A DNA stretch of 45,578 nucleotides from Myxococcota bacterium (GTDB lineage: Bacteria; Myxococcota; XYA12-FULL-58-9; JALHOP01): positions 1 through 45,578 of the forward strand of contig JBGGMJ010000124.1 of assembly GCA_041288095.1 (NCBI GenBank), given 5' to 3'. Below the pieces are notes generated by a model. The model had not been told where the DNA came from. It did no database searches and saw only the letters and a program-made list of their open reading frames with translations. Numbering within the stretch: the first letter of the stretch is position 1; every line of letters begins with the position of its first letter. Shown piece after piece: positions 1,183 to 44,878 of this stretch. Both the position numbers and the translations under genes were made by a program.

Positions 1183-1689
1183 CTACCGACCGCCACGCCG
1201 ATGCGGCTCGATGCCGAGCTCATGCACCGTAAACGGAATGCGCCCAAACGGACGCTCGATGGCCATGTGCACCGCGTCGCCAACGATCTTCTCATCGCCG
1301 ACATCGCCAGCGTGCGTCTGCACGAGCTTCACGCGGCCTTTGCTCTCTTCCTGAACCGCCGCCGCCAGAGCACCGCGAATCGCCGGGTTCTGCATGATCG
1401 GAAGCGTGACTTCAGTGGTGTTGAAGTACTCGCCTTCCCTCATCATGTTCTCGAGGCTGGGCACGTCGCCGGCGGCGAAGATGCGCACCAGCTCCTTGAA
1501 GTGTGGCGAGCCGACGTATTGATCGGGGTCGGTCGAGATCCGGTGCAGCTTGGGGTCGATGTGCTGCCGAGTGATGTCCGTGACGAGACGCTTCGAGCCC
1601 GAGCCCTCATCGGCGAGGGGGCGCGCCGAAGCGGCCTCCTGGCGGGCCCAGGTAGCATGGCCAATTCGAACTTTTGCTCCGTCAGACAT
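1183..1689 (-). CDS. Hypothetical protein (168 aa)
   Basis: Fills gap between convergent and tandem neighbours; normal composition; promoter-like motif 11 nt upstream of the ATG. Confidence 0.7.
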   Translation of the reverse strand: MSDGAKVRIGHATWARQEAASARPLADEGSGSKRLVTDITRQHIDPKLHRISTDPDQYVGSPHFKELVRIFAAGDVPSLENMMREGEYFNTTEVTLPIMQNPAIRGALAAAVQEESKGRVKLVQTHAGDVGDEKIVGDAVHMAIERPFGRIPFTVHELGIEPHRRGGR

Positions 1690-1700
1690 CGTCGGGAATG

Positions 1701-1727
1701 TTATCGCCTGATAAAACAGGGCGTTGC
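1701..1727 (-). promoter_or_regulatory. sigma28-like promoter motif A (GCAAC-N14-GGCGATAA)
   Basis: Minus strand reads gacGCAACgccctgttttatcaGGCGATAA; resembles FliA consensus TAAA-N15-GCCGATAA; motif recurs in the window. Confidence 0.6.
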
Positions 1728-1728
1728 G

Positions 1729-3570
1729 TCAGATTAGCACGCCAGCGATACACGCCATCAGGGCAGTCGTGATCGCTCCAGCGATCATAGCCCGAAGCCC
1801 CAATTTCGCCAGGTCAGAGCGGCGATTTGGAGCCATGGCGCTAATTCCACCGATCTGGATGCCAATCGATGAGAAATTAGCGAAACCGCACAGAGCATAA
1901 GTCGCGATCGTGAAGGTTCTAGGGCTAATTTGGCTGCGCAAAGCGCCCAGCTCGACGTAAGCCACGAACTCGTTGAGCGAGATCTTGATGCCAAGGAGCT
2001 TCCCGAAGGCCAAGAGGTCGTTGGTGTGCACGCCCATGCACCAGGACAGCGGATAGAAGAGGTAGCCGAAGACCTCGCCGAGCTGCAGCCCGGGGTGGCC
2101 AAACCAGCCGCCGGCGACTCCAAGCATCCAGTTGGCGACAGCCACCAGCGCGATGAAGGCGATGAGCATCGCCGCGACGTTCAAGGCGAGCGAGAGGCCG
2201 TCCGAGGCGCCGGCGGCGGCCGCATCGATGACGTTGGCGGTCGTGCGCTCGGGGTCTTTGACCTGGCCACCCTTGGTCTCGGATTCCTCGGTCTCCGGCC
2301 ACATGATCTTGGCGATGACGAGCGAGGCGGGCGCGGACATGACGCTGGCGGCGACGAGGTGGCCGGCGTCGATACCGAAGCGCACGTAAGCGGCGAGCAC
2401 GCCGCCGGCGACCGAGGCGAAGCCACCAACCATGACCGCCATGAGCTCCGACATGGTCATGCCGTTCAGGTACGGCTTCACGACGAGCGGTGCCTCGGTC
2501 TGGCCGACGAAGATGTTCACGGCGGCGGCGAGCGACTCCGAGCCGCTGGTGCGCATCGACTTCTTCATCACCCAAGCGACCGCGTGCACGAGCTTCTGGA
2601 TGATGCCCCAGTGGTAGAGCACCGACATGAAGGCGCCGAAGAAGATGATGGTCGGCAAGATGTGGAAAGCGAAGATGATGCCGATGTTCATGGCGTCACC
2701 GCTGGTGCCGTCGATGAGGGACATCGGGCCGCGGGTTGGGCCGGGGGCCAAGCCGTCGTAGATCGAGCCGAAGACGAAGCTCGCGCCCGCGTCCGTGAAA
2801 GCGATCAACTTGTTGACGGCGTCGTTGGCGACCGCGAAAGCGGCCTTGCCGGCGGGCACGATGAGCACCAGCAAGGCGAAGACGATCTGCAGCGCCATGC
2901 CCCAGATGACCAAGCGCCAATCGATGCGCTTCTTGGCCACCGACATGAGGAACGCGAGGCCCAGCAACACGAAGACGCCGAGCAAGCTGCGCAGGCGCAT
3001 GGTGATCGCGGTGCTGGCGTCGACCTCGGGTGGCCTGGTGAGGCCGAGCGTCACTTCGAGGCGCTTGATCTCGGGGTGCTGCGGCGCGATGGCGACGAGG
3101 TCGTCGAAGCGCTTCAACGCGAGGTCACGGTCGCCGGCTTCGAGCGCCAGGTCGCTGATGTGGACCAAGAGATCGGCCATGCCCTGGCGGCGCTGCCAGT
3201 TGATGAACACGCGGCGCAGACGCTCATGGGCCTTCAACGCGAGGGCCTTGTCGCCGCTGGCGATGACCGCGCAGAGCTGATCGGTGGCGTTGTCGAGCTG
3301 ACCCAGGCGCACCAGGCGATCGCCCCGGCGGTAGGCCTCGGCGATGTCCGGAACGGTGGTGGTCTGCGGTCCGCAATACGACGCCCAGTCGGGCCGCTCT
3401 GGGAGCGATGGATCGGGCTCCTGCTGGGGCTCGTCGGTATCCGGAGCGACGACTTGGTCCGTCGTCTGGCTCTTGACGCTCGCGGGCAGGATCAAGACGG
3501 CCGCGAAAGTGGTCACGGCCGAAACGGCGATGGTTGCCCAGATGCGTCGGGTCAGCACGTTCCGCAGCAT
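1729..3570 (-). CDS. nupC: CNT-family (NupC-like) nucleoside transporter with long N-terminal extension
   Basis: CNT motifs (LPTIIFF, NIFVGQTEAP, NEFVAY, YALCGFANFSSIGIQIGG); start placed at ATG 3570 to avoid overlap with the divergent PNP gene. Confidence 0.9.
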   Translation of the reverse strand: MLRNVLTRRIWATIAVSAVTTFAAVLILPASVKSQTTDQVVAPDTDEPQQEPDPSLPERPDWASYCGPQTTTVPDIAEAYRRGDRLVRLGQLDNATDQLCAVIASGDKALALKAHERLRRVFINWQRRQGMADLLVHISDLALEAGDRDLALKRFDDLVAIAPQHPEIKRLEVTLGLTRPPEVDASTAITMRLRSLLGVFVLLGLAFLMSVAKKRIDWRLVIWGMALQIVFALLVLIVPAGKAAFAVANDAVNKLIAFTDAGASFVFGSIYDGLAPGPTRGPMSLIDGTSGDAMNIGIIFAFHILPTIIFFGAFMSVLYHWGIIQKLVHAVAWVMKKSMRTSGSESLAAAVNIFVGQTEAPLVVKPYLNGMTMSELMAVMVGGFASVAGGVLAAYVRFGIDAGHLVAASVMSAPASLVIAKIMWPETEESETKGGQVKDPERTTANVIDAAAAGASDGLSLALNVAAMLIAFIALVAVANWMLGVAGGWFGHPGLQLGEVFGYLFYPLSWCMGVHTNDLLAFGKLLGIKISLNEFVAYVELGALRSQISPRTFTIATYALCGFANFSSIGIQIGGISAMAPNRRSDLAKLGLRAMIAGAITTALMACIAGVLI

Positions 3571-3605
3571 TGCGGGCGCATCGCTATCACAATATATCCC
3601 GAGCA

Positions 3606-4424
3606 GTGAGCACATATTACGATCAGGTGCAGGAAGCCGTCCGTGCCATTGGCGCCTCGGAGAGCCCTACCGTCGGTGTCGTTCTGGGCTCGGGCCTGTC
3701 CGCTTTTGTCGAGCAGATCGACGAGCCTCGCGTCATCCCCTACCGCGACATACCCAATTTTCCAGTGAGCAACGTCGAAGGGCACAAAGGCGAGCTGGTG
3801 CTCGGCAAGATCGGGAGCGCGCGTATCGTCGTCATGAGCGGACGCGTCCACTATTACGAAGGTCACGCCATGAGCGCCGTGACCTTCCCGATCCGCGTGC
3901 TCGCGGGGCTCGGCATCAAGACCCTGCTGGTCACCAACGCCGCGGGCGGCATCAACACTTCGTTTCGGCCCGGCGACTTCATGATCATCACCGACCACCT
4001 GAACTTGGTCACGGACAACCCGCTGCGTGGCGTCAACGACGACCGCTTCGGCATTCGCTTCCCCGACATGACCGAGGCCTACTCGAAGGCGGCGAGCGAC
4101 AAGCTGCGCGAAGCCGCAAAATTCGCGAACGTTACGCCGCGTGAGGGTGTCTACGCGTTCTGGACCGGCCCCTGCTACGAGACGCCAGCAGAGATACGTA
4201 TGTTGCGGACACTGGGCGCCGATGCGGTCGGCATGTCGACCGTGCCCGAAGTCATCGTGGCACGGCACGCGGGCCTCACCGTCTGCGGCGTGTCGATCAT
4301 CACCAACGCGGCGGCGGGCATCTCGGGAGCCACCTTGTCGCACGACGAGGTCAAAGAGGTCGCCGGCCGCGTGCAAAAACCCATGCGCATGATGCTCGCG
4401 CGCGCGGTGCAAACCCTCGCATGA
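3606..4424 (+). CDS. punA: Purine nucleoside phosphorylase (trimeric type)
   Basis: VVLGSGL, GRVHYYEG, TNAAGG, GPCYETPAE, GMSTVPE motifs; likely GTG start at 3606. Confidence 0.93.
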   Translation: MSTYYDQVQEAVRAIGASESPTVGVVLGSGLSAFVEQIDEPRVIPYRDIPNFPVSNVEGHKGELVLGKIGSARIVVMSGRVHYYEGHAMSAVTFPIRVLAGLGIKTLLVTNAAGGINTSFRPGDFMIITDHLNLVTDNPLRGVNDDRFGIRFPDMTEAYSKAASDKLREAAKFANVTPREGVYAFWTGPCYETPAEIRMLRTLGADAVGMSTVPEVIVARHAGLTVCGVSIITNAAAGISGATLSHDEVKEVAGRVQKPMRMMLARAVQTLA

Positions 4425-5806
4425 CAGTCCGCCATAGTGGCCCCCGCGTGCCGGCCAAAAAAAAGCACGTACCCGTCAAACGCGACGGCACCATCGTCAT
4501 CCGCGGCGCCGACGTCATCACCATGAACGAGCGCTTCGACGTGGCGAAGCTCGACGTCGCCATCGAAGACGGACGCATCATCGGCGTCGGCCCCAAGCTC
4601 TCCACGCGCGGCGCCGACATGGTCATCGAGGCCAAGGGCTTGGTGCTCATGCCCGGCTTCGTGCAGGCCCACGTCCATTTGTGCCAGACGTTGTTTCGCG
4701 CCCAGGCCGACGACATGGTGCTGCTCGATTGGCTGCGCGAGCGCATCTGGCCGATGGAAGGCGCCCTCGAAGCCGACGACATGCGGGCCGCGGCGCGGCT
4801 TGGTCTCTCCGAGCTCTTGCTCTCCGGGACCACGGGCATCCTCGACATGGGCACGGTCCGCCACGCCGACGTGCTCTTCGAGGAAGCCGCGCGCTCTGGC
4901 ATCCGCTATGTCGGAGGCAAGTGCCTCATGGACGTCGGTCAGGGCTACCCCGCCGGTCTGCGCGAAACGACCGAGAGCGCCATCGACGAGAGCGTCACCC
5001 TCTGCGAGCGCTGGCACGGCGCCGCCGATGGCCGCCTGCGTTACGCCTTCTCGCCGCGCTTCGCCTTGTCGTGCAGCGAGCACGCCATGAAGATGTGCGC
5101 CGCCAACGCCCGCGCGCACGGCGCCATGTTGCACACGCATGCCTCGGAGAACTCCGAGGAGATCGAGCTCGTGCGCGAGCGCAGCGGCAAGAGCAACATC
5201 GAGTATCTGCATTCGCTCGGCCTCACCGGTCCCGATGTCGTCCTGGCCCACGGCGTGTGGCTCTCCGCCGAAGAGCGCCGCATCCTGCGCGACACCAAGA
5301 CGCGGCTCGCGCATTGCCCGTCCTCGAACCTGAAGCTCGCGAGCGGCATCGCCCGCATCGACGAGCTCTTGCAGATGGACATCCATATCGCGCTCGGCGC
5401 CGACGGTGCTGCCTGCAATAACGGACTCGACGCCTTCATGGAGATGCGGCTCGCCGCCATCCTCCACAAGGTCCGCGGCGGCCCCACGGCGATCCCCGCG
5501 CGCAAGGCGCTGCACATGGCGACCCGCGCCGGCTCCCAAGCGCTCGGGCTCGAGGACGCCGGCATCATCGCGCCCGGCATGCGCGCCGACGTGGTGCTGC
5601 TCGACCTCCACAAGCCGCACGTCTATCCCGACATCGGCGACCTCACCTCGCGCGTCGTCTATTCGGCTCGGCCAACCGACGTGCACAGCGTCATCATCGA
5701 TGGGCGTGTCGTCGTTCGCGAAGGGCAGCTGTTGACGCTCGATGTGAACAAGACCCTCCGCGATGCCAGAGCGGCCGCGAAGCGTGTCGCGACGCGCGTC
5801 GCCTAG
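4421..5806 (+). CDS. Amidohydrolase-family nucleoside deaminase (5'-deoxyadenosine/MTA-SAH deaminase-like)
   Basis: HVH, HTHASE, AHGVW, HCPSSNLKL, GADG motifs; ATGA overlap with the PNP gene. Confidence 0.85.
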   Translation: MTVRHSGPRVPAKKKHVPVKRDGTIVIRGADVITMNERFDVAKLDVAIEDGRIIGVGPKLSTRGADMVIEAKGLVLMPGFVQAHVHLCQTLFRAQADDMVLLDWLRERIWPMEGALEADDMRAAARLGLSELLLSGTTGILDMGTVRHADVLFEEAARSGIRYVGGKCLMDVGQGYPAGLRETTESAIDESVTLCERWHGAADGRLRYAFSPRFALSCSEHAMKMCAANARAHGAMLHTHASENSEEIELVRERSGKSNIEYLHSLGLTGPDVVLAHGVWLSAEERRILRDTKTRLAHCPSSNLKLASGIARIDELLQMDIHIALGADGAACNNGLDAFMEMRLAAILHKVRGGPTAIPARKALHMATRAGSQALGLEDAGIIAPGMRADVVLLDLHKPHVYPDIGDLTSRVVYSARPTDVHSVIIDGRVVVREGQLLTLDVNKTLRDARAAAKRVATRVA

Positions 5807-6493: not shown

Positions 6494-9400
6494 TCACGCG
6501 TCGTTCACTAGGCGGTGTTGCTTGAGCTTGGCGTAGATACCGGAGCGAGAAATGCCGATGGCGCGGGCGGCGCGTGAGGGGTCGTTGTCGTTCGCCGCCA
6601 GCGCCTCGGCGAGGAAGCTCTTCTCGAAGGTCGCCACGGCATCGCGATAGCGTTTCGACTTCGCAGCCGACATGCTCAACCCGCGCAACGCCGCGCGCAC
6701 CGATTTCGAGAAGTGACCGACACGCAGCTCGTCGTCCGCGAGCGCGAGCGCGCGGCGCAGCTCGTTGTCGAGCTCACGAACGTTACCCGGCCACGCGTAG
6801 CTTTGCAGAGCGTCGAGGACGTCGCGCTTCACCTTGGGCACCGCGATGCCGAACTCTTTTGCCGCGCGGATGAGCAGCACACGGACGAGCTCCGGGATGT
6901 CGTCGGCGCGGTCTCGCAACGGCGGGATCTCGATCAAGGCGCCGGCAAGGCGATAGTAGAGATCTTCGCGGAAGCGGCCCGCCGCGACCAACGCCGACAG
7001 CGACCTGTGACTCGCGCAGACGATTCGCACGTCGGTCTGTTGCTCGTCGGTGGCGCCAACCGCGCGGAAGGTGCCCTCCTCGAGGACGCGCAGGAGCTTC
7101 GTCTGCATCGGCGACCCCATGTCGCCGACTTCGTCGAGAAAGAGCGTGCCGCCATCGGCGACACGGAAGAGGCCCTCTCTATCGTTGAGCGCACCGGTGA
7201 AAGCGCCACGACGAACGCCGAAGAGCTCGCTCTCCAGGAGCTCGTTGGGGATCGCCGCGCAGTTCAGCGCAACGAAGGGTCCCTCGACGCGTGGACTGTG
7301 CGTATGTAACGCGCGCGCGACCAGCTCCTTGCCGGCGCCGGACTCGCCGTGCACGAAGATCGGCAAGGGCACGCTGGCGAAGCGCTGCACCTTGTCGAGG
7401 ACGTCGAGCATGCCGCGGCTGCGGGCGACGATCTGCGAGAACTTGGCGCGCAAGCCGTCGTCGTCGCTCCCGGCCGCGAGGTGCAGTTTGGTGCGCGCCA
7501 GCTCTTCGCTGGTGCGAGAAAGGCTCGAGTGCAGCGCTTCGTTCTCGTTGGCCAAGTTGCTCCGCGCCACTTCGAGCTGGCGACGCTCGTCGAGCAAGGC
7601 GAGGCGCAGCTCGGCGCTCTTGAGCGCCAACGCAGCTTGCTCCGCGAACGCGGTCAGGACCGACAGCGCGTCGACGCTGAAGACGTCGGCGCGGGCACGA
7701 TGGTCGAGATAAATGGCGCCGCGGGGAGCTCCGTCGATGAGCAACGGCACGCACGCGATCGAGCGCATGCGCAGGTCGCGAACGCTGCGCTGCTCCATGA
7801 AGCGCTCATCGGCCATGGCGTCGCTCGTGACGATGCTCCTGCCGCTGGCGATGACTTGCTCGGCGATGCCACGACTGAAGTCGGTGTCGCTGCCGTTCGC
7901 TATGGCGCGTTGAGCGAGCACCGCCATTCCACCTTCGCGCTTCACCAGGGCGAGGCTGCGCTCCGAAGCGGTCAGGGCGGAGACTTCGTCGAGAATCGCG
8001 CCCAACAGCTCGTCAAGGTCGGCGCACTCGTTGAGCTTGCGGTTGATGCGCAAGACCCGCTCGAGCAAGGACGACGCGCCGCTACCACGGGCCTTCGCCC
8101 ACAGGCTCGACAGCCGCGCGACCTCGCGTGCGTTGGCGGGAACGCGCTGGTAGTCGCCGATGTGCTCGCGCGGCAGCGCGGCGAGGGCACGCCGAAAATT
8201 GACGCGCGCCACCGCCACCGCGTCGTCGAGGCCGAGGTCGTCTCCAGCGCGCTCGGCGAGCTCGGCTTGGACCAGGGCCACCTGCCAATCCAGGAGGGGC
8301 GAGCCTCGCATGGCCCGCGTAGCCAGCTCGACCGCCCGGCCGGGAGGCGCGCCACGATCGCAGGCCTCGATGCGCGCGGCCACGAGAGCGGCCTCGGCGT
8401 CAGTCAGGTCCAGATCGCTCACCGCCAAGCGTGCATGCAAGACGTCACCTTCGAGGAGCGCGAGCTTGGCGTGGACGAGCGCCGCATGCCGCGCCATCTG
8501 TCCGTCGCGCTCTCCACGAAACTCCGCGAAGCGGGCCAACGCCGCGCGCGCGTGGTCGAAAGACTCGTTGGCGATGCCGATCTCCGCGTCCAGGAGATGG
8601 AGGCGCGCCACCTCGACGCGCATGCCGCGCTCGGCCGCGAGAGGCGTCGTGAGCTTGAGCCAACGCGCAGCGCTGTCGAGAGCGCCGATCTGAATCGCGA
8701 GATTCGCGATGTTGAAACCGACGCGTACGCGATCGCGGTCGGAGCCGACACGCGCCGCGAGGGTCGCGGCTTCCTGGTAGTGCGCATGGGCCGCGGCCAG
8801 CCGTCCCGCGTCCTGTGCCGCGGTGCCGAGGTTGAGCAAGCGCGCCGGCAGGCGCGTGACGTCGCCCGCGGCTCGGCTGAGGCGATAGGCGCGGCGGTAA
8901 TGAAGCAGCGCGCGGGAGAGCTTGCCGGACTTGTGGGCGGCAAGGCCGCGCGAGGTGGCGATGCTGGCAGCGCCGACTGGGTCGGCTTTCGGCTCGACGA
9001 GCCGCGAGGCCCGTCGCAAACGGCGCTCGGCGTCCTTGATGCGGCCCCGGTAGAAGTCGACGAGGCCGCGCATGTGAAAGAGCTCGCCGCGCGTCGCGGC
9101 CGCGTTGGGGTGCGTCGAAGCTTCGCGGGTGAGCCGCTCGGCCGCATCGAGCTCGCCCCGGTGCAACGCGAGCCTCGCCCGCAGGAGCAGCATGCTCGCC
9201 GATGGGCTCGTCGTCGCGGCTCGCCCGGCGATCGCCCAAGCGTCGTCATAGGCGCCGAGCGTGATCGCCGCCTTCAGAGCGCGGCACTGGCTCAGGTCAT
9301 CGCTCGCGTCGATGCGCGCAAGGACGGCTTCGGTGGCGACGACGCCGGCGAGCTCGCCGCAGCGCTCCTCGAGCTCCACGGCGTAACGGAGCACCTCGGC

Positions 9401-11188
9401 GGTGGCGAGCGACGGGTGCCAGCGCAGATACGTCGTCAGGGGCGCCAGGAGGCGTCGCGACTCGACTGGGCTCAACGCGGCGCGTGCGGCGGGCACGAGC
9501 ACGCGACAAGCACGGTCGGCGCTGCCGGCGTGAAGCTCGTAGACGCAGGCGCGCTCGACGTCGCCTTCACTGTCGAACCAGTCGGCGAGACGACGAGCGC
9601 TGGTCGCGGTCTCGCCGCCGGTGCCGGGCGACACGGGCCGCGCGAGCTGCCAGGCGGGGCCGCGCACGGTCTCGAGCCGCCGGGCAACGTGCCGCGCGAT
9701 GAGCGCGTCGAGGACACGGTCGAGCGACGATGCGTCCAAGCCCGTCGCCGCCAGCAGCGCCCCGCGAGAGAGGCTCTCACTGGTCAACGCCAGCGCGGCG
9801 ACCACGGCGGTTTCGGCGATCGAGAAGGTGATCGAGCGAGACGCCCGCCGACGCGCCTCGTCGATTGCTTGCTCCGGCGCGACGCCGCCGGCGATGGCGA
9901 CGACCACATCTTCGGCGGCGTCGAGCTCGGTAGGGAAAGAGGCCGCGACCGCTTCGAGGCGACTGTCAGCCACCGCTCGGCCTACGCCTCGCCATTCCAG
10001 GATGCGTCGCAACGTCGCGGCATCCACCGTGTCCGGCGGCTCGGCGCCGTCGCGGTAGGCGAGACCCCATCGGCCGCCGATGGACGTGGTGCTCGCGAGC
10101 TCCGCCTCGCCGCGAGCGCTGTTCGCGAAGACGGACAGCACGCGGGTCGCGGCGCCGCCGCGGTCGAGAGCGACGAAGATTGGCTGCTCGCCAGTGGCGC
10201 GCGCGAGGCCCTCGCAAAGCAACGCGGCGCGTGCTTCCACGCTCCCCGCGACTTCAAGCTCGACGCCCACGAGCTCGCCCAAGTACGTGAACCAAGCGTC
10301 CTCGTCGTCGCAGCGCAGCGTCATCGTCGTGAATCCGTCTCGGGCGGCGCGCACCAGGGCGGCATCGAGGCGCTGCGAGTCGCCGCCGGCGCGAACGACG
10401 CGGCGCGTCTCGTCCTGGCGCCATGGGTCGGCGACCGCTGTGTTACGGCGAGCCAATGGCGCGACGTCGACACCCGCGGCGAGGCGGAGCGCGTCGGCGT
10501 TGGGGCGCAGCTCCGGCCGCTGGCTGACGGCCGCGCGCACCAGGGTCGCGACGGCCTGAGGGAGCACGTCATCGAGCCCCCCATGCTCGCCGCCGCGAAA
10601 AACCTCTACCCCCAGCAGACTGACGATGATGCTCGCGCCGAAAGCGTAAATGTCTGCCGCGGCGGACAGAGCCTCACCAGCGACGACCTCGGGCGCGGCG
10701 AAAGGGACGGTGCCAACACCTCGTTCGACGATCTCGCCCGCGAATAGCGAGAAGCCAAGATCGATGAGCCGCGGCGAGGCGCTGCCGCCGTCCAACAAGA
10801 CGTGCGCGGGCTTCAGGTCGCCGTGGGTCCAGCCAACAGCGTGGACGGAGGCGAGCGCTGCCGCCACGCGACCGATGACGGCAACGCGCTCCGGCGTTGC
10901 GGCGGCGCTCAGCGCGTGGTCGAGACGAGTACCAGCGACGTACTCACGAACCAGGGCGAAACGTGCCGCGTCCCAGGCGCCGTAGGCGAGCGAGCGCGGG
11001 ACGGCGTCGTGGCGCAGCAAGAGGCCGGCGGCGTATTCACGGAGCAGGGCGGCGCGCGCGGCCGGGTCGTCACGAGCGACGAGCTTGACGCAAACGAGGC
11101 GCTCGGAGCGGTCGGCGCCGCGATAGCAGACGCCGTCGATACCGCTGCCGAGCTGCTCCTCGAGACGAAAGCCCCGAGAGAGCATCAT
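6494..11188 (-). CDS. Ser/Thr kinase-TPR-GAF-sigma54 activator (AAA+)-Fis HTH fusion
   Basis: HGDLKPAH/DLG/APE kinase motifs; TPR-like helices; GAF (SIACVPL..GAIYLD); GESGAGKE, ESELFG, GAFTGA, WPGNVREL; C-terminal HTH. Confidence 0.92.
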   Translation of the reverse strand: MMLSRGFRLEEQLGSGIDGVCYRGADRSERLVCVKLVARDDPAARAALLREYAAGLLLRHDAVPRSLAYGAWDAARFALVREYVAGTRLDHALSAAATPERVAVIGRVAAALASVHAVGWTHGDLKPAHVLLDGGSASPRLIDLGFSLFAGEIVERGVGTVPFAAPEVVAGEALSAAADIYAFGASIIVSLLGVEVFRGGEHGGLDDVLPQAVATLVRAAVSQRPELRPNADALRLAAGVDVAPLARRNTAVADPWRQDETRRVVRAGGDSQRLDAALVRAARDGFTTMTLRCDDEDAWFTYLGELVGVELEVAGSVEARAALLCEGLARATGEQPIFVALDRGGAATRVLSVFANSARGEAELASTTSIGGRWGLAYRDGAEPPDTVDAATLRRILEWRGVGRAVADSRLEAVAASFPTELDAAEDVVVAIAGGVAPEQAIDEARRRASRSITFSIAETAVVAALALTSESLSRGALLAATGLDASSLDRVLDALIARHVARRLETVRGPAWQLARPVSPGTGGETATSARRLADWFDSEGDVERACVYELHAGSADRACRVLVPAARAALSPVESRRLLAPLTTYLRWHPSLATAEVLRYAVELEERCGELAGVVATEAVLARIDASDDLSQCRALKAAITLGAYDDAWAIAGRAATTSPSASMLLLRARLALHRGELDAAERLTREASTHPNAAATRGELFHMRGLVDFYRGRIKDAERRLRRASRLVEPKADPVGAASIATSRGLAAHKSGKLSRALLHYRRAYRLSRAAGDVTRLPARLLNLGTAAQDAGRLAAAHAHYQEAATLAARVGSDRDRVRVGFNIANLAIQIGALDSAARWLKLTTPLAAERGMRVEVARLHLLDAEIGIANESFDHARAALARFAEFRGERDGQMARHAALVHAKLALLEGDVLHARLAVSDLDLTDAEAALVAARIEACDRGAPPGRAVELATRAMRGSPLLDWQVALVQAELAERAGDDLGLDDAVAVARVNFRRALAALPREHIGDYQRVPANAREVARLSSLWAKARGSGASSLLERVLRINRKLNECADLDELLGAILDEVSALTASERSLALVKREGGMAVLAQRAIANGSDTDFSRGIAEQVIASGRSIVTSDAMADERFMEQRSVRDLRMRSIACVPLLIDGAPRGAIYLDHRARADVFSVDALSVLTAFAEQAALALKSAELRLALLDERRQLEVARSNLANENEALHSSLSRTSEELARTKLHLAAGSDDDGLRAKFSQIVARSRGMLDVLDKVQRFASVPLPIFVHGESGAGKELVARALHTHSPRVEGPFVALNCAAIPNELLESELFGVRRGAFTGALNDREGLFRVADGGTLFLDEVGDMGSPMQTKLLRVLEEGTFRAVGATDEQQTDVRIVCASHRSLSALVAAGRFREDLYYRLAGALIEIPPLRDRADDIPELVRVLLIRAAKEFGIAVPKVKRDVLDALQSYAWPGNVRELDNELRRALALADDELRVGHFSKSVRAALRGLSMSAAKSKRYRDAVATFEKSFLAEALAANDNDPSRAARAIGISRSGIYAKLKQHRLVNDA

Positions 11189-12762: not shown

Positions 12763-14340
12763 GTGCGTTCACTCTGCTTGATCATCGTGATGCTTGCCGG
12801 CTGCACCGGTTGGATCTCGCCGCCGCTCGCGGAGACCAGCGTCGAGACCAGCGCCGAGCCGAGCGCAAGTCCGCTAAGGCGGTTGACTCGCGCGGAGCTC
12901 GCCGCCTCACTGACCCAGGCTTTCGCGATCTCACCCGCGGCGCTCGTCGAGGGCTTGCCGGAGGACATCACCGCCGAGCGTGGCAATCCCTTCGACAACG
13001 ACTATGCCTTGCAGGACGTCGCCACGGCGTACGTCCAGAGCCTCACGGAGTTCGCCGAACGCTACGGTGATCTCGTCGCCTCTCAGCCCGCCCGCGTCGA
13101 CGCGATCGCGGGATGCCGGCCGACCGCCGCGGACGATGCCGCGTGCCTCGGTGCGTTCGTGCAGCGGGCAGGCCGCCTCGTGTTGCGACGCGAGCTCGCG
13201 GCTTCCGATGTCGCGCTCTTTCTCGCTCTCATCGACGAGGCGCGTGCGGCCAATGACTACTACGTCGGCATCGCGGCGGTCGTGCAAGCGCTGGTGCAGC
13301 ACCCAGAGACGATCTTCCGCTTCGAGATCGGTGAGCCCGCGCGCCTCGGCGAGCGTGATGCCTTCTTGCTCGGCGACTTCGAGGTTGCGAGTCGCCTGGC
13401 GTTTCTCGTGTGGGGAGCGGCGCCGGACGAGGCGTTGCTGGACGTCGCGGCAAGCGGAGGGCTCGCCGACCCCGGTGTTCGTCGAGGCGAAGCCCAGCGC
13501 CTCTACGACTCGCCACAAGCGCGCGCCCATTGGCGACGCTTCCACGCGCAATGGCTCGGGTACGCCGATCGCCTTCCCGACCAACTCGTCGCCGATCTCA
13601 CGCTGGAGACCGACACGGTCGTCGACGCCGTCACCCACGACGAGCCGACGCTGGCCTGGTTCGATCTCTTCACCCTGGACCGCAGCTATCTGACTCCGGC
13701 GCTGGCGGCGCACTACGGCATGGCCCCAACCGCGACGGCCACATGGGTACGTTATAGCGGTGGACGGGGTGGAGGTGTGCTCGCGCACGGCATGTTCCTG
13801 CAGCAAGGAGCGAAGTTCGGTGACACCAGCCCGACCCTGCGCGGCTATCGCATCTTGAAACGCGTCCTCTGCGGCGAGCTGGGCGCGCTGCCCACCAGCG
13901 TCGACACCGATGTACCACCCGCCGGCACCTCGCCGTCGGATTGCAAGGAGGAACGCTACACGATGCGCGCGACGCCGGCGTGCGCGACCTGCCACATGGT
14001 GACTGACGGGATCGGGTTCGGCCTCGAGAACTTCAGCGCGACGGGAGCGTGGCGTGAAGTCGAGACCAACAACCCAGCTTGCGCCATCGACGGCGCGGGC
14101 GACGTCCTCGGTGAGAGCTATAGCGGTCCGGCGGAGCTCGGAGCCATCATTGCCGCGAGCGAGGACGCGCTCGCATGCGGCGCCCGTCAGCTCTTTCGCT
14201 TCGCGAGCGGTCGCACCGAGCGCGACGCCGACGAGGACGGCATCGCGGCAATCGCCGAGCTCGTCGCCCAACGAGCGAGCTTCCGCCAAGTGCTGATGAC
14301 GCTCATCGAGAGCCCAATGTTCAACTACCGAACCGAATGA
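12763..14340 (+). CDS. DUF1592/DUF1588-family lipoprotein
   Basis: LAGC lipobox; [47 protein letters not shown] motifs. Confidence 0.88.
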
Positions 14341-14348
14341 GGTCTGCC

Positions 14349-15707: not shown

Positions 15708-15728
15708 CTCCCGCGAAGCACGCGCCGC

Positions 15729-16583
15729 TCAGGGGGCTTCGGGCGGCGCCTCGACGTCCTTGGCAAGTGCGCGCGTGAGCTTCGGCCGCACCCCCGTGGA
15801 CGCGAGCAACTGGTCGAGCCGTCGTGCCGCGTCGCCGTTCGACGCGCGCACCTTCTTGCCGATGATCAGCTCGTTCTTGAGCGAATGCTCCCAACCCGCG
15901 AGCTCCGTCACCGTGACGCTGTAACCGTGCGCCTCGAGCGTCAGAGCGCGGATGACGTTCGTGAGGTGGGAGCCGAACTCACGCCGATGCCACGGATGCG
16001 AATGCAGCTCCGCCATGACGGGCGACTCGCCGTCGCGCTCCTTGAGCTGGCGCGCCACCTCGGCCTGGCAGCACGGCACTACGGCGACGTGGTCGGCGCC
16101 GCGCTCGATAGCAAGCGTCAAGGCGTCGTCGGTGGCGGTGTCGCAGGCGTGCAGCGCGACGACCAGGTTCACCCGCGGCGGCAGCGTCGCGCCGGCGATG
16201 TCGGACCCGATGACCTCGAGTCGATCGAAACCAAGCCGCTGCGACCGCTCACGCGCACCGCGCACCAGGTCCTCGCGGGACTCGAGCAGAATCAAGCGCC
16301 CCTTCCCGGCGTCGCGCAGGAACAGCTCGTAGAGAATGAACCCGAGGTAGCTCTTCCCCGCGCCGCAATCGACGACCACCGGCTCGCCGAAGCGCGCGAG
16401 GACGTCATCGAGCGCCGGGCGCACCAGCTGCACCAGGTGATTCACCTGCTTGAGCTTGCGCAAGGTGTCCGCGTTCATGGCACCATCGCGCGTGACGAGG
16501 TGCAGATCCTTCAAGAGCTCGACCGATTGCCCGGGCGCGAGCTCCTTCTTCAGCTCACCGGCTTCGACACGGCGTCGGCTCAC
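15729..16583 (-). CDS. SAM-dependent methyltransferase (Methyltransf_32-like)
   Basis: VDCGAGKSYLGF, ALHACDTATD, VPCCQ; GTG start overlaps the upstream TGA (GTGA). Confidence 0.88.
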   Translation of the reverse strand: MSRRRVEAGELKKELAPGQSVELLKDLHLVTRDGAMNADTLRKLKQVNHLVQLVRPALDDVLARFGEPVVVDCGAGKSYLGFILYELFLRDAGKGRLILLESREDLVRGARERSQRLGFDRLEVIGSDIAGATLPPRVNLVVALHACDTATDDALTLAIERGADHVAVVPCCQAEVARQLKERDGESPVMAELHSHPWHRREFGSHLTNVIRALTLEAHGYSVTVTELAGWEHSLKNELIIGKKVRASNGDAARRLDQLLASTGVRPKLTRALAKDVEAPPEAP

Positions 16584-17335: not shown

Positions 17336-17356
17336 TCGGGCGCTATATCAGCTTCG

Positions 17357-18001
17357 CTAGGCGTCGTCCTTGAATGCTGCTTTGAGCGCGGCCATGCCGG
17401 CTAAGGCCAGCACCGCGCCGCCGGCGATGAGCATGAACGAAGGCGAGCGACCGGCACTGTGCACCATGTTCATGACGCCGGTGAGCGCGAGAAAGCCGCC
17501 ACCACCGAGCGCCGCGATACCGCCGAGGCCGATGGCCGTGTTCTTCATGGAGGCCCAGAAGGTGCCGGAGGTCTTGTCCTCGGCCGCGTGCTGCTCGCCG
17601 CGATAGCGGTCCGGGCGTTCGTAGCGATCATCGTAGCGGTCGTCGCGGCGCCCGCCGTAGCCGTCGTAACGTGGCGGCGGCCGGTCGCAGTCGCGGGGCC
17701 TATCGGCGCGACGTTGGTCGGCGCTGCGCGGTCCACGCTGGTCCTGGTACGGGCGGAACTTGCCGTACTTGTCGTAGTAGCCACGGCGCTTGTCTTGGCG
17801 CTTCCCCGGGCGCTTGCGGCGGCCGTCACCGTCGTCGTCACGACGGCGCTGCTGCTCGATGATGTTGGCCATGAGGTCGTCATGGTCCATGCACACGGCC
17901 GGATCGACGCGCACGCGGAAGGGAATGGCGCGCGAATGATGTTGTTCCGTGAAACCAGCGCCGCAGTCAGCATCAGGCTGACCGAATTGGATCGGGCTCA
18001 T
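17357..18001 (-). CDS. Hypothetical protein: Arg/Asp/Tyr-rich disordered region plus two C-terminal TM helices
   Basis: Fills intergenic gap; hydrophobic Gly/Ala-rich hairpin at the C-terminus; promoter motif upstream. Confidence 0.65.
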   Translation of the reverse strand: MSPIQFGQPDADCGAGFTEQHHSRAIPFRVRVDPAVCMDHDDLMANIIEQQRRRDDDGDGRRKRPGKRQDKRRGYYDKYGKFRPYQDQRGPRSADQRRADRPRDCDRPPPRYDGYGGRRDDRYDDRYERPDRYRGEQHAAEDKTSGTFWASMKNTAIGLGGIAALGGGGFLALTGVMNMVHSAGRSPSFMLIAGGAVLALAGMAALKAAFKDDA

Positions 18002-18081: not shown

Positions 18082-18108
18082 TTATCGTGCCGCTCCCAGG
18101 CAGGTTGC
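18082..18108 (-). promoter_or_regulatory. sigma28-like promoter motif B (GCAAC-N14-CACGATAA)
   Basis: gacGCAACctgcctgggagcggCACGATAA; a second -10-like GCCGATTA lies at 18053-18060. Confidence 0.55.
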
Positions 18109-18118
18109 GTCGATCGGT

Positions 18119-20470: not shown

Positions 20471-20491
20471 AACCTCCCGGTCGCTTCTTCC

Positions 20492-20518
20492 GCAACAACT
20501 CCGGGCAACTGCCGATAC
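20492..20518 (+). promoter_or_regulatory. sigma28-like promoter motif C (GCAAC-N14-GCCGATAC), pointing antisense into otsB
   Basis: cGCAACaactccgggcaactGCCGATAC. Confidence 0.55.
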
Positions 20519-27187: not shown

Positions 27188-33061
<5,874 letters not shown>

Positions 33062-37316: not shown

Positions 37317-38327
37317 TCAACGCATCAGACAGAAACCACCCGAGAAGGCCGCATCGGAGCTCGCGAAGTTGAGCTGGATGCATTCGGTGCCCACCATGAG
37401 CTCATCGCAATCGTCGCGCGTCGCGCACGGCGTCGTGCACATGCCCTCGAGACACCACTCGCCAGCGCAATCGGAGTCAGTGTCGCAGTCGTCCCAAAGG
37501 TCGCCGTGGCCACTGTAGAGGCGCCCGATGCAGACACTGGTCCAGCCGCGCTGGCCGCCGTCGTCGATGAGGGGATAGAAACCGCAGGCCTCGCTCGGCC
37601 CGCAGTCGGGTGCCGCGCGGCAATGCGCAACGCATTCGCTGCCGACGCACATTCCGCTATCGCATTCACTGGGGTCGCTGCAGCTCTCGCCGGTCGAGCG
37701 ATACCGCGACAGGTCGCTCGCGATGCAGACGTGCAGGTAACCCATGTCGGCCGGGTAGGCGTAGCAAACCTCGCCGCTGCCGCAGTCACGGTCAGCCGCG
37801 CATTGCACGACGCAGGTCCCGGTCGCGGTGTCGCACACTTGGGTCTGACACTCGTTGTCGGAGTCAGTGCACGCGCCACCCGGCGGGGTCGTGAAGGGGT
37901 AACCCGCTTCACCGGCACCGAGCTGCCAGTCGGCGAGGCAGATTTGCACGCCGTCGAGCGTCGTCGACTCGTAGTTGTAACAAGCAAAGCCCGTGGGGCA
38001 GTCGTCGTTGCCGCCGCGGCCGGTGCCGATGCACGGGACGGTGCAGATGGTGCTGCCGACGGCGAGGCCGCTGCACACGAGGCCCGGCCCGCACTCCGCC
38101 GTGGTGTCGCAATCGTCACCGAAGGTCGGATCATCGACCTCGGGAGGAGGAATGATCGGATCGTCGTCGTCCTCGTCGGGCACGACGTCGACCGGATCAT
38201 CCTGGTCGGTGGTCGTGCGCGAGTCTCCACCGCTGTCGCCACCGAGTGGCGACAACGGAGTGGTCCGCGTGCTCCCGCTACAGGCGAGCACACAGCCCGA
38301 GAGCAAGAGCAACGCGGCCTTCATCAT
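37317..38327 (-). CDS. Cys-rich repeat lipoprotein
   Basis: VLAC lipobox; repeated CxxDxDC..GxxC modules; ATGA overlap with the upstream gene. Confidence 0.8.
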   Translation of the reverse strand: MMKAALLLLSGCVLACSGSTRTTPLSPLGGDSGGDSRTTTDQDDPVDVVPDEDDDDPIIPPPEVDDPTFGDDCDTTAECGPGLVCSGLAVGSTICTVPCIGTGRGGNDDCPTGFACYNYESTTLDGVQICLADWQLGAGEAGYPFTTPPGGACTDSDNECQTQVCDTATGTCVVQCAADRDCGSGEVCYAYPADMGYLHVCIASDLSRYRSTGESCSDPSECDSGMCVGSECVAHCRAAPDCGPSEACGFYPLIDDGGQRGWTSVCIGRLYSGHGDLWDDCDTDSDCAGEWCLEGMCTTPCATRDDCDELMVGTECIQLNFASSDAAFSGGFCLMR

Positions 38328-39109
38328 CGAAAGACCCGAGGGGTCATCTGCGGCATGACGCGACCGCCGGGGGTCGTCATACCTGCGCCTGGAACCATGC
38401 CGGCGCCGGGCGTCATGCCGGGCGTCATCATCGTGCCCGATCCCGGCGGGGCGCCAACGCCGCTGTAGCCGGGGATGCACGTGTCGCGCATGCCCATCAG
38501 CCGCTTCACCGCGGCGCCCACCGTCTTATCGAAGAAGCCGATGAGACCGTAGTTGTTGAACATGCCGCACTGGCCGTTCGTCGGCGTGCCGGTGCGCGCC
38601 GGATATTGACCCATACCCGGAGGAACCGTGGGCATCGGCCGACCGTTGGGCATCGTCGGCCCGCCAGGCTGCTGGCCAGGGACGAGCACCGGCGGTTGTT
38701 GCGGATTGTAGCCACCGGCTCGCGGGGGCAGCGTACCCGGCAACGTGCGACCAGGCAGGGTCACACCCGGGACCGTGCGGCCAGGCATAGTCACCCCTGG
38801 CACGGTCGGCATTGGCCGCGCGATCGGCGCGGGCCCACCCGGCACACCGGGCACGAGCACCGGCGGGCGCTGTGGGATACCACCCGCGCGACCCGGCGGC
38901 GCGATTCCAATGCCAGGCATGGTGGGGAGCGGCCGAGCCCCTCCCAAAAATCCGCCTGGGACAGGACCGGGCACGAGCACCGGCGGACGCCCGCCAAGTG
39001 GTCCTGGTGCAAGCGGCACCGGCATCGGCCGAGCCAATGCACCTGGGGGAGCTGCGCGAAAGGAGTAGTTGCCGGGCGCACTCGGTCCGACACCGAACGG
39101 TCCTGCCAT
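38324..39109 (-). CDS. Pro/Gly-rich low-complexity protein (261 aa)
   Basis: GAGGAG RBS; repeats of RPMPTVPG, PPVLVPG, TxPG, MTPG; stop coupled to the next start. Confidence 0.7.
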   Translation of the reverse strand: MAGPFGVGPSAPGNYSFRAAPPGALARPMPVPLAPGPLGGRPPVLVPGPVPGGFLGGARPLPTMPGIGIAPPGRAGGIPQRPPVLVPGVPGGPAPIARPMPTVPGVTMPGRTVPGVTLPGRTLPGTLPPRAGGYNPQQPPVLVPGQQPGGPTMPNGRPMPTVPPGMGQYPARTGTPTNGQCGMFNNYGLIGFFDKTVGAAVKRLMGMRDTCIPGYSGVGAPPGSGTMMTPGMTPGAGMVPGAGMTTPGGRVMPQMTPRVFR

Positions 39110-39190: not shown

Positions 39191-39216
39191 ATATCGGCGT
39201 TGCGCGGTAGAGTTGC
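39191..39216 (-). promoter_or_regulatory. sigma28-like promoter motif D (GCAAC-N13-GCCGATAT)
   Basis: cGCAACtctaccgcgcaacGCCGATAT upstream of the Pro/Gly-rich gene. Confidence 0.6.
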
Positions 39217-42779: not shown

Positions 42780-43403
42780 GTGCGTGATCTCAACGTCGAC
42801 TGGCCAGCGCTACACAGCGCCTTCCAAATGAACATGCCCGAGGTACGGTGTTTCCTGTCCCTCGAGGATGGGCGTGTACTCAAAGTCCCGCCTGGCGACG
42901 CGCGTCTCGCTCAGGTCCGCGAGCAAACCACGCGCTACGCCCCCATCGAGGCCATCCCTTCGCGCATCCAGTACCAGTGGCTCGACGACTTCATCCGCCA
43001 GGTCGAGGAGCCGGGCGTCAAGGCGCGCATGGAAGCCGCCATCAACGGCAAGGGTGCCTTCCGTCGCTTCAAGGACATTTTGCTGACGCTGCCCGAGGAG
43101 CGTCGCCGCTGGTTCGAGTTCCGCGATGCCCGCATGCGCGAGCGCATCGTCGAATGGGTCGCGGAGGTTGGGGTGCAGGCGACCAATCTGCCACCGTGGC
43201 TGGGTGGGCCCGGCGAGTATCAGTCCGCTGAAGCGGTCAATGACATCGTCGCGCTCGAGGCCAACGAGAAGCAATACACCGAGGCGCTGCGCGACTATCT
43301 GATCGCGTGGTCCGAGGGTAAGACCGTCGACGCCTTGTCGCCGCTCTCGCTCGAGAAGCTGGCGCAGGGCATCGCGCAAAGCTTCGTCGTCAAACCGCGT
43401 TAG
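42780..43403 (+). CDS. UPF0158 family protein
   Basis: YQWLDDFI..AINGKGAFRRFKDIL...RWFEFR. Confidence 0.85.
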   Translation: MRDLNVDWPALHSAFQMNMPEVRCFLSLEDGRVLKVPPGDARLAQVREQTTRYAPIEAIPSRIQYQWLDDFIRQVEEPGVKARMEAAINGKGAFRRFKDILLTLPEERRRWFEFRDARMRERIVEWVAEVGVQATNLPPWLGGPGEYQSAEAVNDIVALEANEKQYTEALRDYLIAWSEGKTVDALSPLSLEKLAQGIAQSFVVKPR

Positions 43404-44695
43404 CCGAAGAGCGAGATCTCGACGCCCAGAGTCGAGAGGATGAGCACCAAATTGAGCGCCAGCACCAAGCCGGCGCCGAGCCAAGCCACGCCGTCGGTGA
43501 GCTTGCTGTTGGCCTGCTCGCCCATGAGGCGCGGGTCGCGCGTGAAGAGCACGAGCGCCACCATCGGCACGGGCAGGGCAATGGACAGCACGACCTGGCT
43601 CAACACCAGCGAGCGCGTCGCATCGAGGCCCATGCCGACGACGATGAACGCCGGCACCATGGTCACCACGCGACGCACCCAGACGGGAATGCGGAAGCCG
43701 ACGAAGCCCTGCATGATCACCTGACCCGCCATGGTGCCGACGACCGAGCTCGAGATGCCCGAGGCGATGAGCGACATGAGGAAGATGCCGGCGGCGGCGA
43801 TGCCGAGGAGCGGCGTCAGCGTGTGATACGCGGTTTCGATCTCGGCGACTTCGCTGTGCCCGGCGTGAAACGCGCTCGAGGCCATCATCACCATGGCCGC
43901 GTTGACGATGCCGGCGAGCGCGAGCGCGATGATCACCTCGCGGTTCGAGATGCGCACCAGCTGGCGCTTCTCGGCGACATCTCGGCCGACGAACCGTCCC
44001 TGGGTCAGCGAGGAGTGCAGGAAGATGGCGTGCGGCATGACTGTCGCGCCGATGATGCCGACCGCGATGGCGAGCGCTTCGGTGTTGGGAATGCGCGGTG
44101 AGCCGAGGCTCTTGACGACGTCGAGCCACTCGATGGGCGCGATGAAGAGCTCGATCACGTAGCAGAGCGCGATGATGCCGACGAGCACGCCGATGATGAT
44201 CTCCATCGGCCGGAACCCATTCTGCTCGAATGCCAGGATGGCGAAGGTGAGCACCGCGGTGACGGCCATGCCCGCGAGCATCGGCATGCCGAAGAGGAGC
44301 GACAAACCAATGGCGCCGCCCAGGAACTCGGCGAGATCTGTCGCCATAGCGGCCACCTCGCTCACGATCCACATGGCGATGACGACCGGCTTGCTGAAAC
44401 GCTCGCGGCACATCTCGGCGAGGTTCTTGCCAGTGACGATGCCGAGCTTCGCCGATAGCCCTTGGAAGAGCATGGCGATGAGGTTCGCCACGGCCACCAC
44501 CCAAAGCAGCGTGTAGCCGAACTTCGAGCCCGCCTGGATGTTGGTCGCGAAGTTGCCCGGGTCCATGTAGGCGATGGACGCGATGACCGCTGGACCAGCG
44601 AAGAGGAGGAACGACTGCAGCGGCGAGCGGCGGCCGGCGAGCGCTTCGATCATGCCGGCGTGAGTGCGTTCGCTCAGGGTTCCGCGGCGATTCAT
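43400..44695 (-). CDS. mntH: Nramp-family Mn2+ transporter
   Basis: YMDPGNF, GATVMPHAIFLHS, TMAGQVIMQGF, SQVVLS. Confidence 0.96.
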   Translation of the reverse strand: MNRRGTLSERTHAGMIEALAGRRSPLQSFLLFAGPAVIASIAYMDPGNFATNIQAGSKFGYTLLWVVAVANLIAMLFQGLSAKLGIVTGKNLAEMCRERFSKPVVIAMWIVSEVAAMATDLAEFLGGAIGLSLLFGMPMLAGMAVTAVLTFAILAFEQNGFRPMEIIIGVLVGIIALCYVIELFIAPIEWLDVVKSLGSPRIPNTEALAIAVGIIGATVMPHAIFLHSSLTQGRFVGRDVAEKRQLVRISNREVIIALALAGIVNAAMVMMASSAFHAGHSEVAEIETAYHTLTPLLGIAAAGIFLMSLIASGISSSVVGTMAGQVIMQGFVGFRIPVWVRRVVTMVPAFIVVGMGLDATRSLVLSQVVLSIALPVPMVALVLFTRDPRLMGEQANSKLTDGVAWLGAGLVLALNLVLILSTLGVEISLFG

Positions 44696-44707
44696 TGGCG
44701 CGAATAT

Positions 44708-44730
44708 AAACTATAGCCTCGGCTATACCT
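44708..44730. promoter_or_regulatory. MntR-type operator
   Basis: aaacTATAGCCtcGGCTATAcct; core ATAGC-N4-GCTAT as in the E. coli MntR box; abuts the TATATT -10 of mntH. Confidence 0.8.
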
Positions 44731-44773
44731 AGGGAGCCGAGGCCATCCCAGGCAACATCCGGCCGTTCCCGGT

Positions 44774-44843
44774 TAAAATGGGGACATCAACCATTTTCCA
44801 GGCAACCGCTCGCAGCGGAAAAATGGTTGGTGTCCCCATTTTA
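44774..44843. repeat. REP-like inverted repeat, copy 2
   Basis: taaaatggggacatcaaccatttt / aaaatggttggtgtccccatttta; inner hairpin ccgct-cgc-agcgg; arms nearly identical to copy 1. Confidence 0.8.
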
Positions 44844-44851
44844 GTGGCGAA

Positions 44852-44878
44852 GCAACTTCCGGCTCCCCCGCAAGATAA
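44852..44878 (+). promoter_or_regulatory. sigma28-like promoter motif E (GCAAC-N14-CAAGATAA)
   Basis: GCAACttccggctcccccgCAAGATAA, 32 nt upstream of ATG 44911. Confidence 0.5.

Follow-up and report, generated by a model that had tools for sequence, protein, structure and literature searches.

The 45,578-nucleotide (nt) stretch of Myxococcota DNA analyzed here (contig JBGGMJ010000124.1, referred to in full as the window) carries five copies of a short bipartite sequence, GCAAC-N13/14-NN(C/A)GATA. Comparison with the rest of the genome and with its relatives shows that this motif is real, oriented, conserved and phylum-wide. The five sites are probably promoters of one divergent sigma factor of the sigma28 group, called sigB here, which, to judge from the sequence data, would co-regulate a secretion system of type III (T3SS) together with about 300 dispersed genes. 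The window is contig C124 of an assembly (G000) of 5.85 Mb in 212 contigs, with 66% guanine and cytosine (GC) and a completeness of ~90%. Genes were called by a codon-usage score, giving 4,919 genes over 91.8% of the DNA and leaving 8.2% intergenic; these calls and their start choices are crude.

The motif has exactly five matches in the window, against 0.12 expected and a maximum of 1 in 100 dinucleotide shuffles. This number agrees with a preliminary description of the window, in which three of the positions were one base off. Its further observations that the copies are intergenic and that two of them share gacGCAAC are correct: all five fall between gene calls, and the shared letters belong to sites 1 and 2. 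The sites and the genes behind them are as follows:

Site 1: 1702..1727, minus strand, cGCAAC-N16-CGATAa, exact match.
Target of site 1: 1183..1689, minus strand, orphan of 168 amino acids (aa) with a polar N-terminus, starting 12 nt past the motif.
Site 2: 18083..18108, minus strand, cGCAAC-N16-CGATAa, exact match.
Target of site 2: 17357..18001, minus strand, orphan of 214 aa, 81 nt downstream of the motif.
Site 3: 20492..20517, plus strand, cGCAAC-N16-CGATAc, exact match, between the start of a glutathione S-transferase (GST) gene and the 3' end of a trehalose-phosphatase gene.
Site 4: 39192..39216, minus strand, gcGCAAC-N15-CGATAt, with an unusual 15-nt spacing.
Target of site 4: 38324..39109, minus strand, orphan of 261 aa, 82 nt downstream of the motif.
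Site 5: 44852..44877, plus strand, aGCAAC-N16-AGATAa, with one mismatch in the -10 box.
Target of site 5: 44911..45576, plus strand, orphan of at least 221 aa, 33 nt downstream of the motif and running off the window.

The footprint of each site was compared in three genomes of the same genus, G001 to G003, at ~75-88% nucleotide identity. All five sites are conserved in these relatives, the boxes being kept while spacers and flanks change. Site 2 leaves a clean footprint, with boxes identical in G001 and G002 and a conserved leader; the spacer and the DNA upstream of the -35 box have diverged. All three relatives retain site 1, despite the rapid divergence of its downstream orphan gene; the -35 box of this site overlaps with the stop codon of a nucleoside-transporter gene that lies upstream. 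Both G001 and G002 retain site 3, and its spacer measures 16 nt in one of them and 17 nt in the other. The outer GCAAC and CGATA of site 4 are kept in the same two genomes, and a second GCAAC inside its spacer is not conserved. The GCAAC and AGATAA of site 5 are conserved in G002.

Orphan genes with polar N-termini, which the preliminary description placed behind the motif, follow four of the five sites (168, 214, 261 and at least 221 aa); the description fails for site 3. No Pfam family was found at E<=0.5 for the 168-aa orphan, the 261-aa orphan or the orphan of at least 221 aa, nor at E<=1e-5 for the 214-aa orphan, whose LysE row at E=0.2 is at chance level. Among 5.8 billion clusters, the 168-aa orphan has only 3 homologues besides itself (62-89% identity) and the 214-aa orphan only 4 (64-76% identity). 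The Atlas model of the 214-aa orphan is of low confidence, with a predicted local distance difference test (pLDDT) score of 0.56, and the ESM Atlas gave no usable feature match for this protein or for the 261-aa orphan. The latter is followed on the same strand by a 336-aa orphan (37317-38327).

Site 3 points antisense into the trehalose-phosphatase gene (20541-21368, minus strand; PF02358, 4.6e-40). The "Pro/Gly protein" formerly placed behind this site is a shadow open reading frame of that gene, without a Pfam match and with a lower coding score. The next gene on the plus strand is TreT-like (21414-23333) and lies ~900 nt away. Transcription from this conserved site may yield an antisense RNA or else a leader of great length. 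The enzymes that had been proposed as further targets (M4, M28, TreT-like and papain-like) find no support. The supposed -10-only site before the M4 gene reads GCACC-N18-CGATAA, which is off-spacing, and two-mismatch matches are at chance level in the window (40 against 37 expected); the site suggested before the papain-like gene is rejected on the same count. Peptidase M28 has no Pfam match among the genes of the window.

The recurrence anticipated from the window copies is seen across the genome, far above background. GCAAC-Nx-CGATA has 133 matches at x=16 and 60 at x=17, compared with 4-15 at any of the remaining spacings between 8 and 23. A reversed-pattern control gives 15 matches where the motif at N16/17 gives 193. 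Most of these sites (121/133 at N16 and 47/60 at N17, together 168/193) lie in the intergenic 8.2% of the DNA. Of the intergenic N16 sites, 116 are followed by a gene on their own strand; it begins within 300 nt in 104 of these and in 41 of 47 N17 sites, at median distances of 56 and 49 nt. One-mismatch variants number 193 in forward and 104 in reverse orientation against 12 in shuffles, about 25 times over. When up to one mismatch is allowed, 969 matches and 299 downstream genes (~6% of the gene calls) are obtained. The number of exact sites varies between genomes, from ~20 in one large relative through 40-90 across the order to ~200 in this genus.

The profile of the 193 sites is c-GCAAC-N14-g(101)-c(117)-CGATA-a/c(87 and 73), and nothing is conserved beyond the two boxes. 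The motif is therefore not a repeat element, and a mobile element is ruled out in the same way. CCGATA and CGATAA are also the most strand-biased hexamers upstream of genes. The resemblance to the sigma28 consensus pointed out in the preliminary description holds for the -10 box (gcCGATAa/c) and the bipartite geometry; it does not hold for the -35 box, which is GCAAC and not TAAA. The canonical FliA -35 box was rejected, TAAA-Nx-CCGATA having 0-2 matches at every spacing.

ECF (extracytoplasmic function) promoters carry an AAC-containing -35 box, which GCAAC resembles. The motif could on this basis be an ECF-type (group 4) promoter, with AAC in the -35 box and a CG-rich -10 box, or else the housekeeping promoter of the lineage, as no other bipartite signal of the genome comes near it in strength: TTGAC-N17/18-TANNNT has only 23 and 22 matches against ~9. 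Either assignment is very improbable. The -10 box is gcCGATAa/c and not CGTC, and throughout the phylum the motif goes with sigB and the T3SS cluster. Among 49 tRNA genes, the exact motif is found at none and the one-mismatch motif at 2, and no ribosomal or core housekeeping gene is present among 120 annotated targets, on which grounds a housekeeping promoter was rejected.

FliA/WhiG-like sigma factors and T3SS genes were both sought in the genome, and both were found. The assembly encodes RpoD, two further group 1/2-like sigma factors, RpoH and two sigma factors for which FliA_WhiG is the best model (166 and 164 bits). The last two are:

sigB: contig C92, 35188-36072, 294 aa, outside the window, best model FliA_WhiG.
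sigA: contig C127, 270 aa, second FliA_WhiG-like sigma factor.

FliA_WhiG (TIGR02479) is the best model for sigB at 163.7 bits, under the NCBIfam cut-off of 189.6 and ahead of SigBFG at 87.1 bits. The FliA/WhiG models are matched over their full profile length, and the Sigma70_r2 and Sigma70_r4 Pfam domains are present. Its top PDB sequence matches, 9wsm, 9wsf, 6pfv, 1rp3, 6pmi and 7lq4, are FliA/WhiG proteins (E 6e-27 to 6e-17), and region 2.4/3.0 aligns well with the solved FliA/WhiG chains. Among 27 orthologues of 45-99% identity, 10 of the 12 positions in the region-4.2 segment LSKSWTSRLHAR never vary, and one more is conserved at >=90%. This near-invariance fits the unchanging GCAAC -35 box.

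A T3SS gene cluster is found on the same contig as sigB. SctV (799 bits), SctU, SctR, SctN and SctJ are present in single copy in G000, and a 24-kb minus-strand cluster on C92 adds SctL, SctO, SctQ, SctS and SctT as well as FliO-, FliG_M- and FliK-like proteins. The first T3SS gene has a weak SctI-like match (E=0.008), and a FliM/N-like part is among the flagellum-like components of the cluster. Flagellin (PF00669) and rod (PF00460) proteins have no match in this 90%-complete assembly. Secretin, needle and translocon were not seen in the cluster by Pfam, no genome-wide search having been made for them. On its predicted gene content, the T3SS is non-flagellar, with the core export apparatus and sorting platform present. 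The flagellum-like parts lie at C92:8668-9513, 21671-22693 and 4851-5441 (a FliK-like protein with a Flg_hook match below the cut-off, a FliG_M-like protein and FliO). Genes for a Kup potassium transporter, a GNAT protein and an HD-domain protein are embedded in the cluster.

In three genomes of the same genus, one contig holds flagellin genes along with a second FHIPEP gene and the gene of a third FliA-like sigma factor (G001:C2, G002:C2 and G003:C59). The genus thus probably has a flagellum as well as the non-flagellar T3SS, the flagellar set being lacking or lost in the G000 assembly. The presence of a flagellar FliA in these relatives suggests that sigB is a paralogue beside FliA and not its replacement.

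The association of sigB with the T3SS is seen well beyond this genus. Among 39 sigB loci in public genomes (48-99% identity, GC 45-70%), the first T3SS gene directly follows sigB in 34. SctJ and the FliG-like gene come next in 19 of the loci, followed in 14 of these by SctL and SctN, with every gene on the same strand. In G000, sigB is 11 kb from the T3SS cluster, an RND/TolC insertion lying between them in this genus. The gene itself comes last in a conserved operon of four to five genes, after proteins of ~110 aa, ~180 aa, a TPR protein of ~140 aa and one of ~150 aa. The motif, with up to one mismatch, is present on the sigma strand 1.2-2.4 kb upstream of sigB in 20 of the 33 loci with enough DNA, where ~1 would be expected from the shuffle rate. 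This position at the head of the sigB operon suggests positive autoregulation. In G000, the head of the T3SS cluster (aACAAC-N16-CGATAa), the sigB operon and sctV have one-mismatch motifs before them, and an exact one comes after sctU and a TPR gene. In G029, a distant 9-Mb relative with a sigma factor of 46% identity, the sigma operon has an exact motif at its head, and the T3SS cluster has another three inside it. In G040, which is likewise distant, exact or one-mismatch motifs stand before the sigma operon and before the first T3SS gene. The type III link of the preliminary description is thus borne out to this extent: throughout the phylum the sigB gene has the T3SS cluster as its neighbor, and T3SS operons have the motif at their head.

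The T3SS cluster of G029 (C57, minus strand, ~6044-4897) also contains three tandem paralogous genes encoding 73-78 aa, without a Pfam family. Exact motifs precede two of the three and the 184-aa gene after them. The size and position of these proteins would suit small exported structural subunits.

From these associations, it is likely that sigB reads the GCAAC/CGATA motif. Orthologues of at least 63% identity are present in 19 of 21 genomes of the same order. Another sigma28 paralogue might read the motif instead, either sigA or the flagellar FliA of the relatives, with sigB a mere neighbor of the T3SS. The gene right after sigA (C127:22611-22853) encodes an 80-aa FlgM-like protein (31.3 bits, cut-off 25), and the -10 box is of the general sigma28 type. 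Genome G005 also has the motif enriched (counts 87/9) and a 59% relative of sigA, and a sigB orthologue was not found in it. This assignment is nevertheless improbable. Enrichment of the motif extends over the order, and yet sigA orthologues are limited to 6 of 40 relatives. Three genomes, G004, G010 and G015, have sigB, the T3SS and the motif (counts 85/13, 50/7 and 94/17), without flagellin or another FliA-like match. The motif heads the sigB operon in most of the loci with enough DNA, and none with up to one mismatch is found upstream of sigA; TAAA-N15-CCGATA is essentially absent. It can be added that the FlgM-like anti-sigma gene is present in an assembly without flagellin or rod genes.

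The motif-bearing genes of G000 number 299, with 145 behind exact and 154 behind one-mismatch motifs. The targets are mostly fast-evolving, genus-restricted orphans, cysteine-poor and without an N-terminal hydrophobic signal. Pfam families were sought at E<=1e-6 in the first 120 of the 145 exact-motif genes. A family was found in 29/120 targets against 84/123 controls (Fisher p=4e-12), the controls (E<=1e-5 or 1e-4; window non-targets, three sigma/T3SS neighborhoods, the T3SS contigs and C23) being no random draws and including a few targets; the window non-targets alone give 23/30. A paralogue at E<=1e-6 is lacking for 200 of the 299 targets. A shared N-terminal domain was considered and rejected on this number, 53 of 314 paralogue matches being themselves targets against a background of 6%.

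The N-terminal signal was scored as the top mean Kyte-Doolittle value over 11 residues inside the first 60, with a threshold of 1.9. By this crude measure, a hydrophobic N-terminus is present in 22/145 exact targets and, as an independent set, in 26/154 one-mismatch targets, compared with 1803/4620 other genes; among genes that lack the motif and have 60 nt or more of DNA upstream, the number is 772/2276. The enrichment of signal-less proteins among the targets (15-17% hydrophobic N-termini against 39% of other genes) is that expected in the preliminary description. Relative to signal-less controls, residues 2-25 of signal-less targets are richer in Pro (1.47x) and Ser (1.23x) and have less Cys, Phe, Tyr, Lys and Glu. 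The median cysteine content of the whole protein is 0.39% against 0.71% (p=8e-10), and the depletion relative to ordinary signal-less proteins extends from residues 2-25 (0.51x) to residues 61-400 (0.57x).

Hydrolases predominate among the named target families: M24 (two), S8 (two), trypsin, M1, S9, C11, GGT, GH3, amylase and polyhydroxybutyrate (PHB) depolymerase. A serpin, a Flp-like pilin, a kelch protein and a serine/threonine kinase complete the list, together with ordinary cytoplasmic enzymes. The pilin gene is an exact-motif target (C23:7871-8122, minus strand), a Flp/Fap-like match of 30.6 bits against a cut-off of 32.2, followed by two orphans and with no Tad machinery genes beside it. 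The idea of a scattered, co-regulated non-Sec set is thus supported by the large dispersed regulon and its enrichment in signal-less proteins, and qualified by the signal-bearing lipoproteins and cytoplasmic enzymes that it includes.

FliA and WhiG regulons elsewhere hold many non-secreted proteins. It is quite possible, while falling short of likely, that sigB reads the motif and is co-expressed with the T3SS, and that the orphans are mostly intracellular and belong to a lifestyle program such as predation, stress or a developmental state. Cytoplasmic proteins likewise have no Sec signal; the targets include cytoplasmic-looking enzymes and the serine/threonine kinase, and in the T3SS cluster neither a needle nor a secretin gene was observed. 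An intracellular function would leave unexplained why the targets differ from signal-less proteins of the same genome in their cysteine content and in their N-terminal Pro and Ser; it also sits poorly with the 76% of annotated targets that lack a Pfam family and with the confinement of both tested window orphans to the genus.

By analogy, a large share of the orphans may instead be substrates or cargo of the T3SS, a proposal that we hold to be plausible and somewhat doubtful. It is drawn because FliA class-3 genes and the HrpL-dependent hrp-box regulon offer parallels. Still more tentative is the suggestion, made on the same analogy, that the ~300 orphans form the export repertoire of a needle-less myxobacterial T3SS, their expression being tied to secretion by sigB and the small proteins of its operon.

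The proposed course of events is as follows. RNA polymerase carrying sigB would start transcription a few bases past CGATA at all five window sites. The sigma factor would amplify its own expression and activate the T3SS genes, along with a large and quickly changing group of proteins that lack a signal. Coupling of sigB activity to secretion might, as a guess, be provided by the TPR protein and by op159, the conserved gene product encoded before sigB, with its disordered N-terminus and helical body. In the AlphaFold2 model of op159, residues 1-36 are disordered and seven helices follow (pLDDT 64; predicted template modeling score 0.53). The model has no match at E<=0.001 in a Foldseek comparison with the PDB, and the hhalign probability of a relationship between op159 and the FlgM-like protein is 0.4%. 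A T3SS with flagellum-like parts (FliO and FliM/N-, FliG- and FliK-like) may in this manner have kept a checkpoint of the FliA/FlgM style.

Several observations weigh against sigB as the regulator, or against export of its targets. The assignment of sigB to the motif is by association only; its score is below the family cut-off, and the FlgM-like gene adjoins sigA and not sigB. Apart from G005, in which the motif is enriched and sigB was not found, G022 and G023 have motif counts of 41/8 and 41/1 without a close sigB, and G007 and G012 have sigB and few motifs, in assemblies that are 65% and 84% complete. Site 3 is without a sensible downstream gene. No RNA runs containing the DNA of window positions 14000-22000 are listed. 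As to export, a DEAD helicase, an adenosine deaminase, a homoserine dehydrogenase fusion and an acetyl-CoA hydrolase are ordinary cytoplasmic enzymes among the targets, and the 15-17% of targets with hydrophobic N-termini include lipoprotein-like ones. The gene calls, starts and hydrophobicity measure are crude, and the shifts in N-terminal composition are modest. Finally, the T3SS of Myxococcus xanthus is described as lacking needle and secretin in the available part of PMC12075869.

Some other features of the window can be recorded here. A near-perfect inverted repeat of ~25 nt (44775-44799 and 44817-44842) lies between site 5 and a divergent Nramp gene (43400-44695, minus strand). It is kept in G002, where changes in both arms preserve complementarity, and belongs to no Rfam family; no Rfam family was found anywhere in the window at the gathering score. 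The repeat might serve the Nramp gene as an operator or attenuator. The minus strand also encodes a 1564-aa fusion of a Ser/Thr kinase, TPR, GAF, a sigma54-activator AAA+ domain and a Fis-type helix-turn-helix (6494-11188), and a 1957-aa protein with a high coding score and no Pfam family even at E<=0.1 (27188-33061).

In comparison with known systems, sigB stands near FliA. FliA (sigma28) recognizes TAAA-N15-GCCGATAA and drives class-3 flagellar promoters, and FlgM is its exported anti-sigma factor. The two sigma factors fall in the same group by best NCBIfam model and best PDB sequence matches. The -10 box (g c CGATA a/c) agrees with GCCGATAA in the same bipartite geometry, and the sigB gene accompanies a type III export apparatus in which flagellar-like parts are retained (FliO, FliH and FliM/N-, FliG_M- and FliK-like); the sigB regulon holds signal-less proteins. 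The differences are the GCAAC -35 box, the score under the family cut-off and the coexistence of a separate flagellar FliA in relatives. Moreover, the machine encoded with sigB is non-flagellar, FlgM does not adjoin sigB, and the regulon consists mostly of orphans and is ~10 times the size of typical FliA regulons.

In Pseudomonas syringae and Erwinia, the hrp box, GGAACC-N15/16-CCACNNA, is recognized by HrpL, a sigma factor of the ECF type (group 4). HrpL shares with sigB the arrangement of a dedicated sigma factor encoded with a T3SS and of a bipartite box before both machine genes and a dispersed, fast-evolving set, an arrangement that lets effectors be traced through their promoters. In contrast, sigB belongs to group 3 and is sigma28-like, the box is another one, the T3SS is probably of the needle-less myxobacterial type, and the effectors are candidates only. 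Since sigB misses the FliA_WhiG cut-off and the TAAA -35 box and is not an ECF factor, it would strictly be a member of neither kind. In the predator Bdellovibrio, a FliA-motif attack-phase regulon reportedly comprises hundreds of mostly hypothetical genes. A sigma28-type promoter driving hundreds of such genes is the common feature; there, the sigma factor is the flagellar FliA with its canonical motif in a flagellated attack-phase cell, whereas the factor considered here is a paralogue distinct from FliA and linked to a non-flagellar T3SS.

A needle-less T3SS is required by myxobacteria for killing on contact. The machine itself resembles the needle-less T3SS of Myxococcus xanthus (mxan_2434-2464) in its core of SctJ, L, N, O, Q, R, S, T, U and V. 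A bridge is offered by G029, a 9-Mb, 100% complete genome of the same phylum with the cluster and with sigma factor and motif inside it. The available parts of two papers report that the M. xanthus system is required for prey lysis, its effectors being only "potential" (PMC12075869, PMC10849154), and that it works with a Tad-like pilus (PMC12075869), which lends interest to the Flp/Fap-like pilin among the targets. No sigma factor is named for it in the available parts of either paper: "sigma" and "FliA" have 0 occurrences in PMC12075869, and the single "sigma" in PMC10849154 concerns SigF and motility. The published literature that was searched contains no T3SS-linked sigma28 paralogue or GCAAC/CGATA promoter in Myxococcota, and a link to a known M. 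xanthus sigma factor (SigF) is possible.

If the reading proposed here is true, a non-flagellar T3SS with flagellum-like parts would carry its own paralogue of the sigma28 family. The range of regulon sizes between genomes points to rapid, lineage-specific expansion of an arsenal of orphan proteins. A promoter so sharply defined can be searched in any genome and would turn the question of effectors into a testable list; with ~20 copies in the 9-Mb relative, the motif would give a first promoter-based list of candidate effectors for a T3SS of the Myxococcus type.

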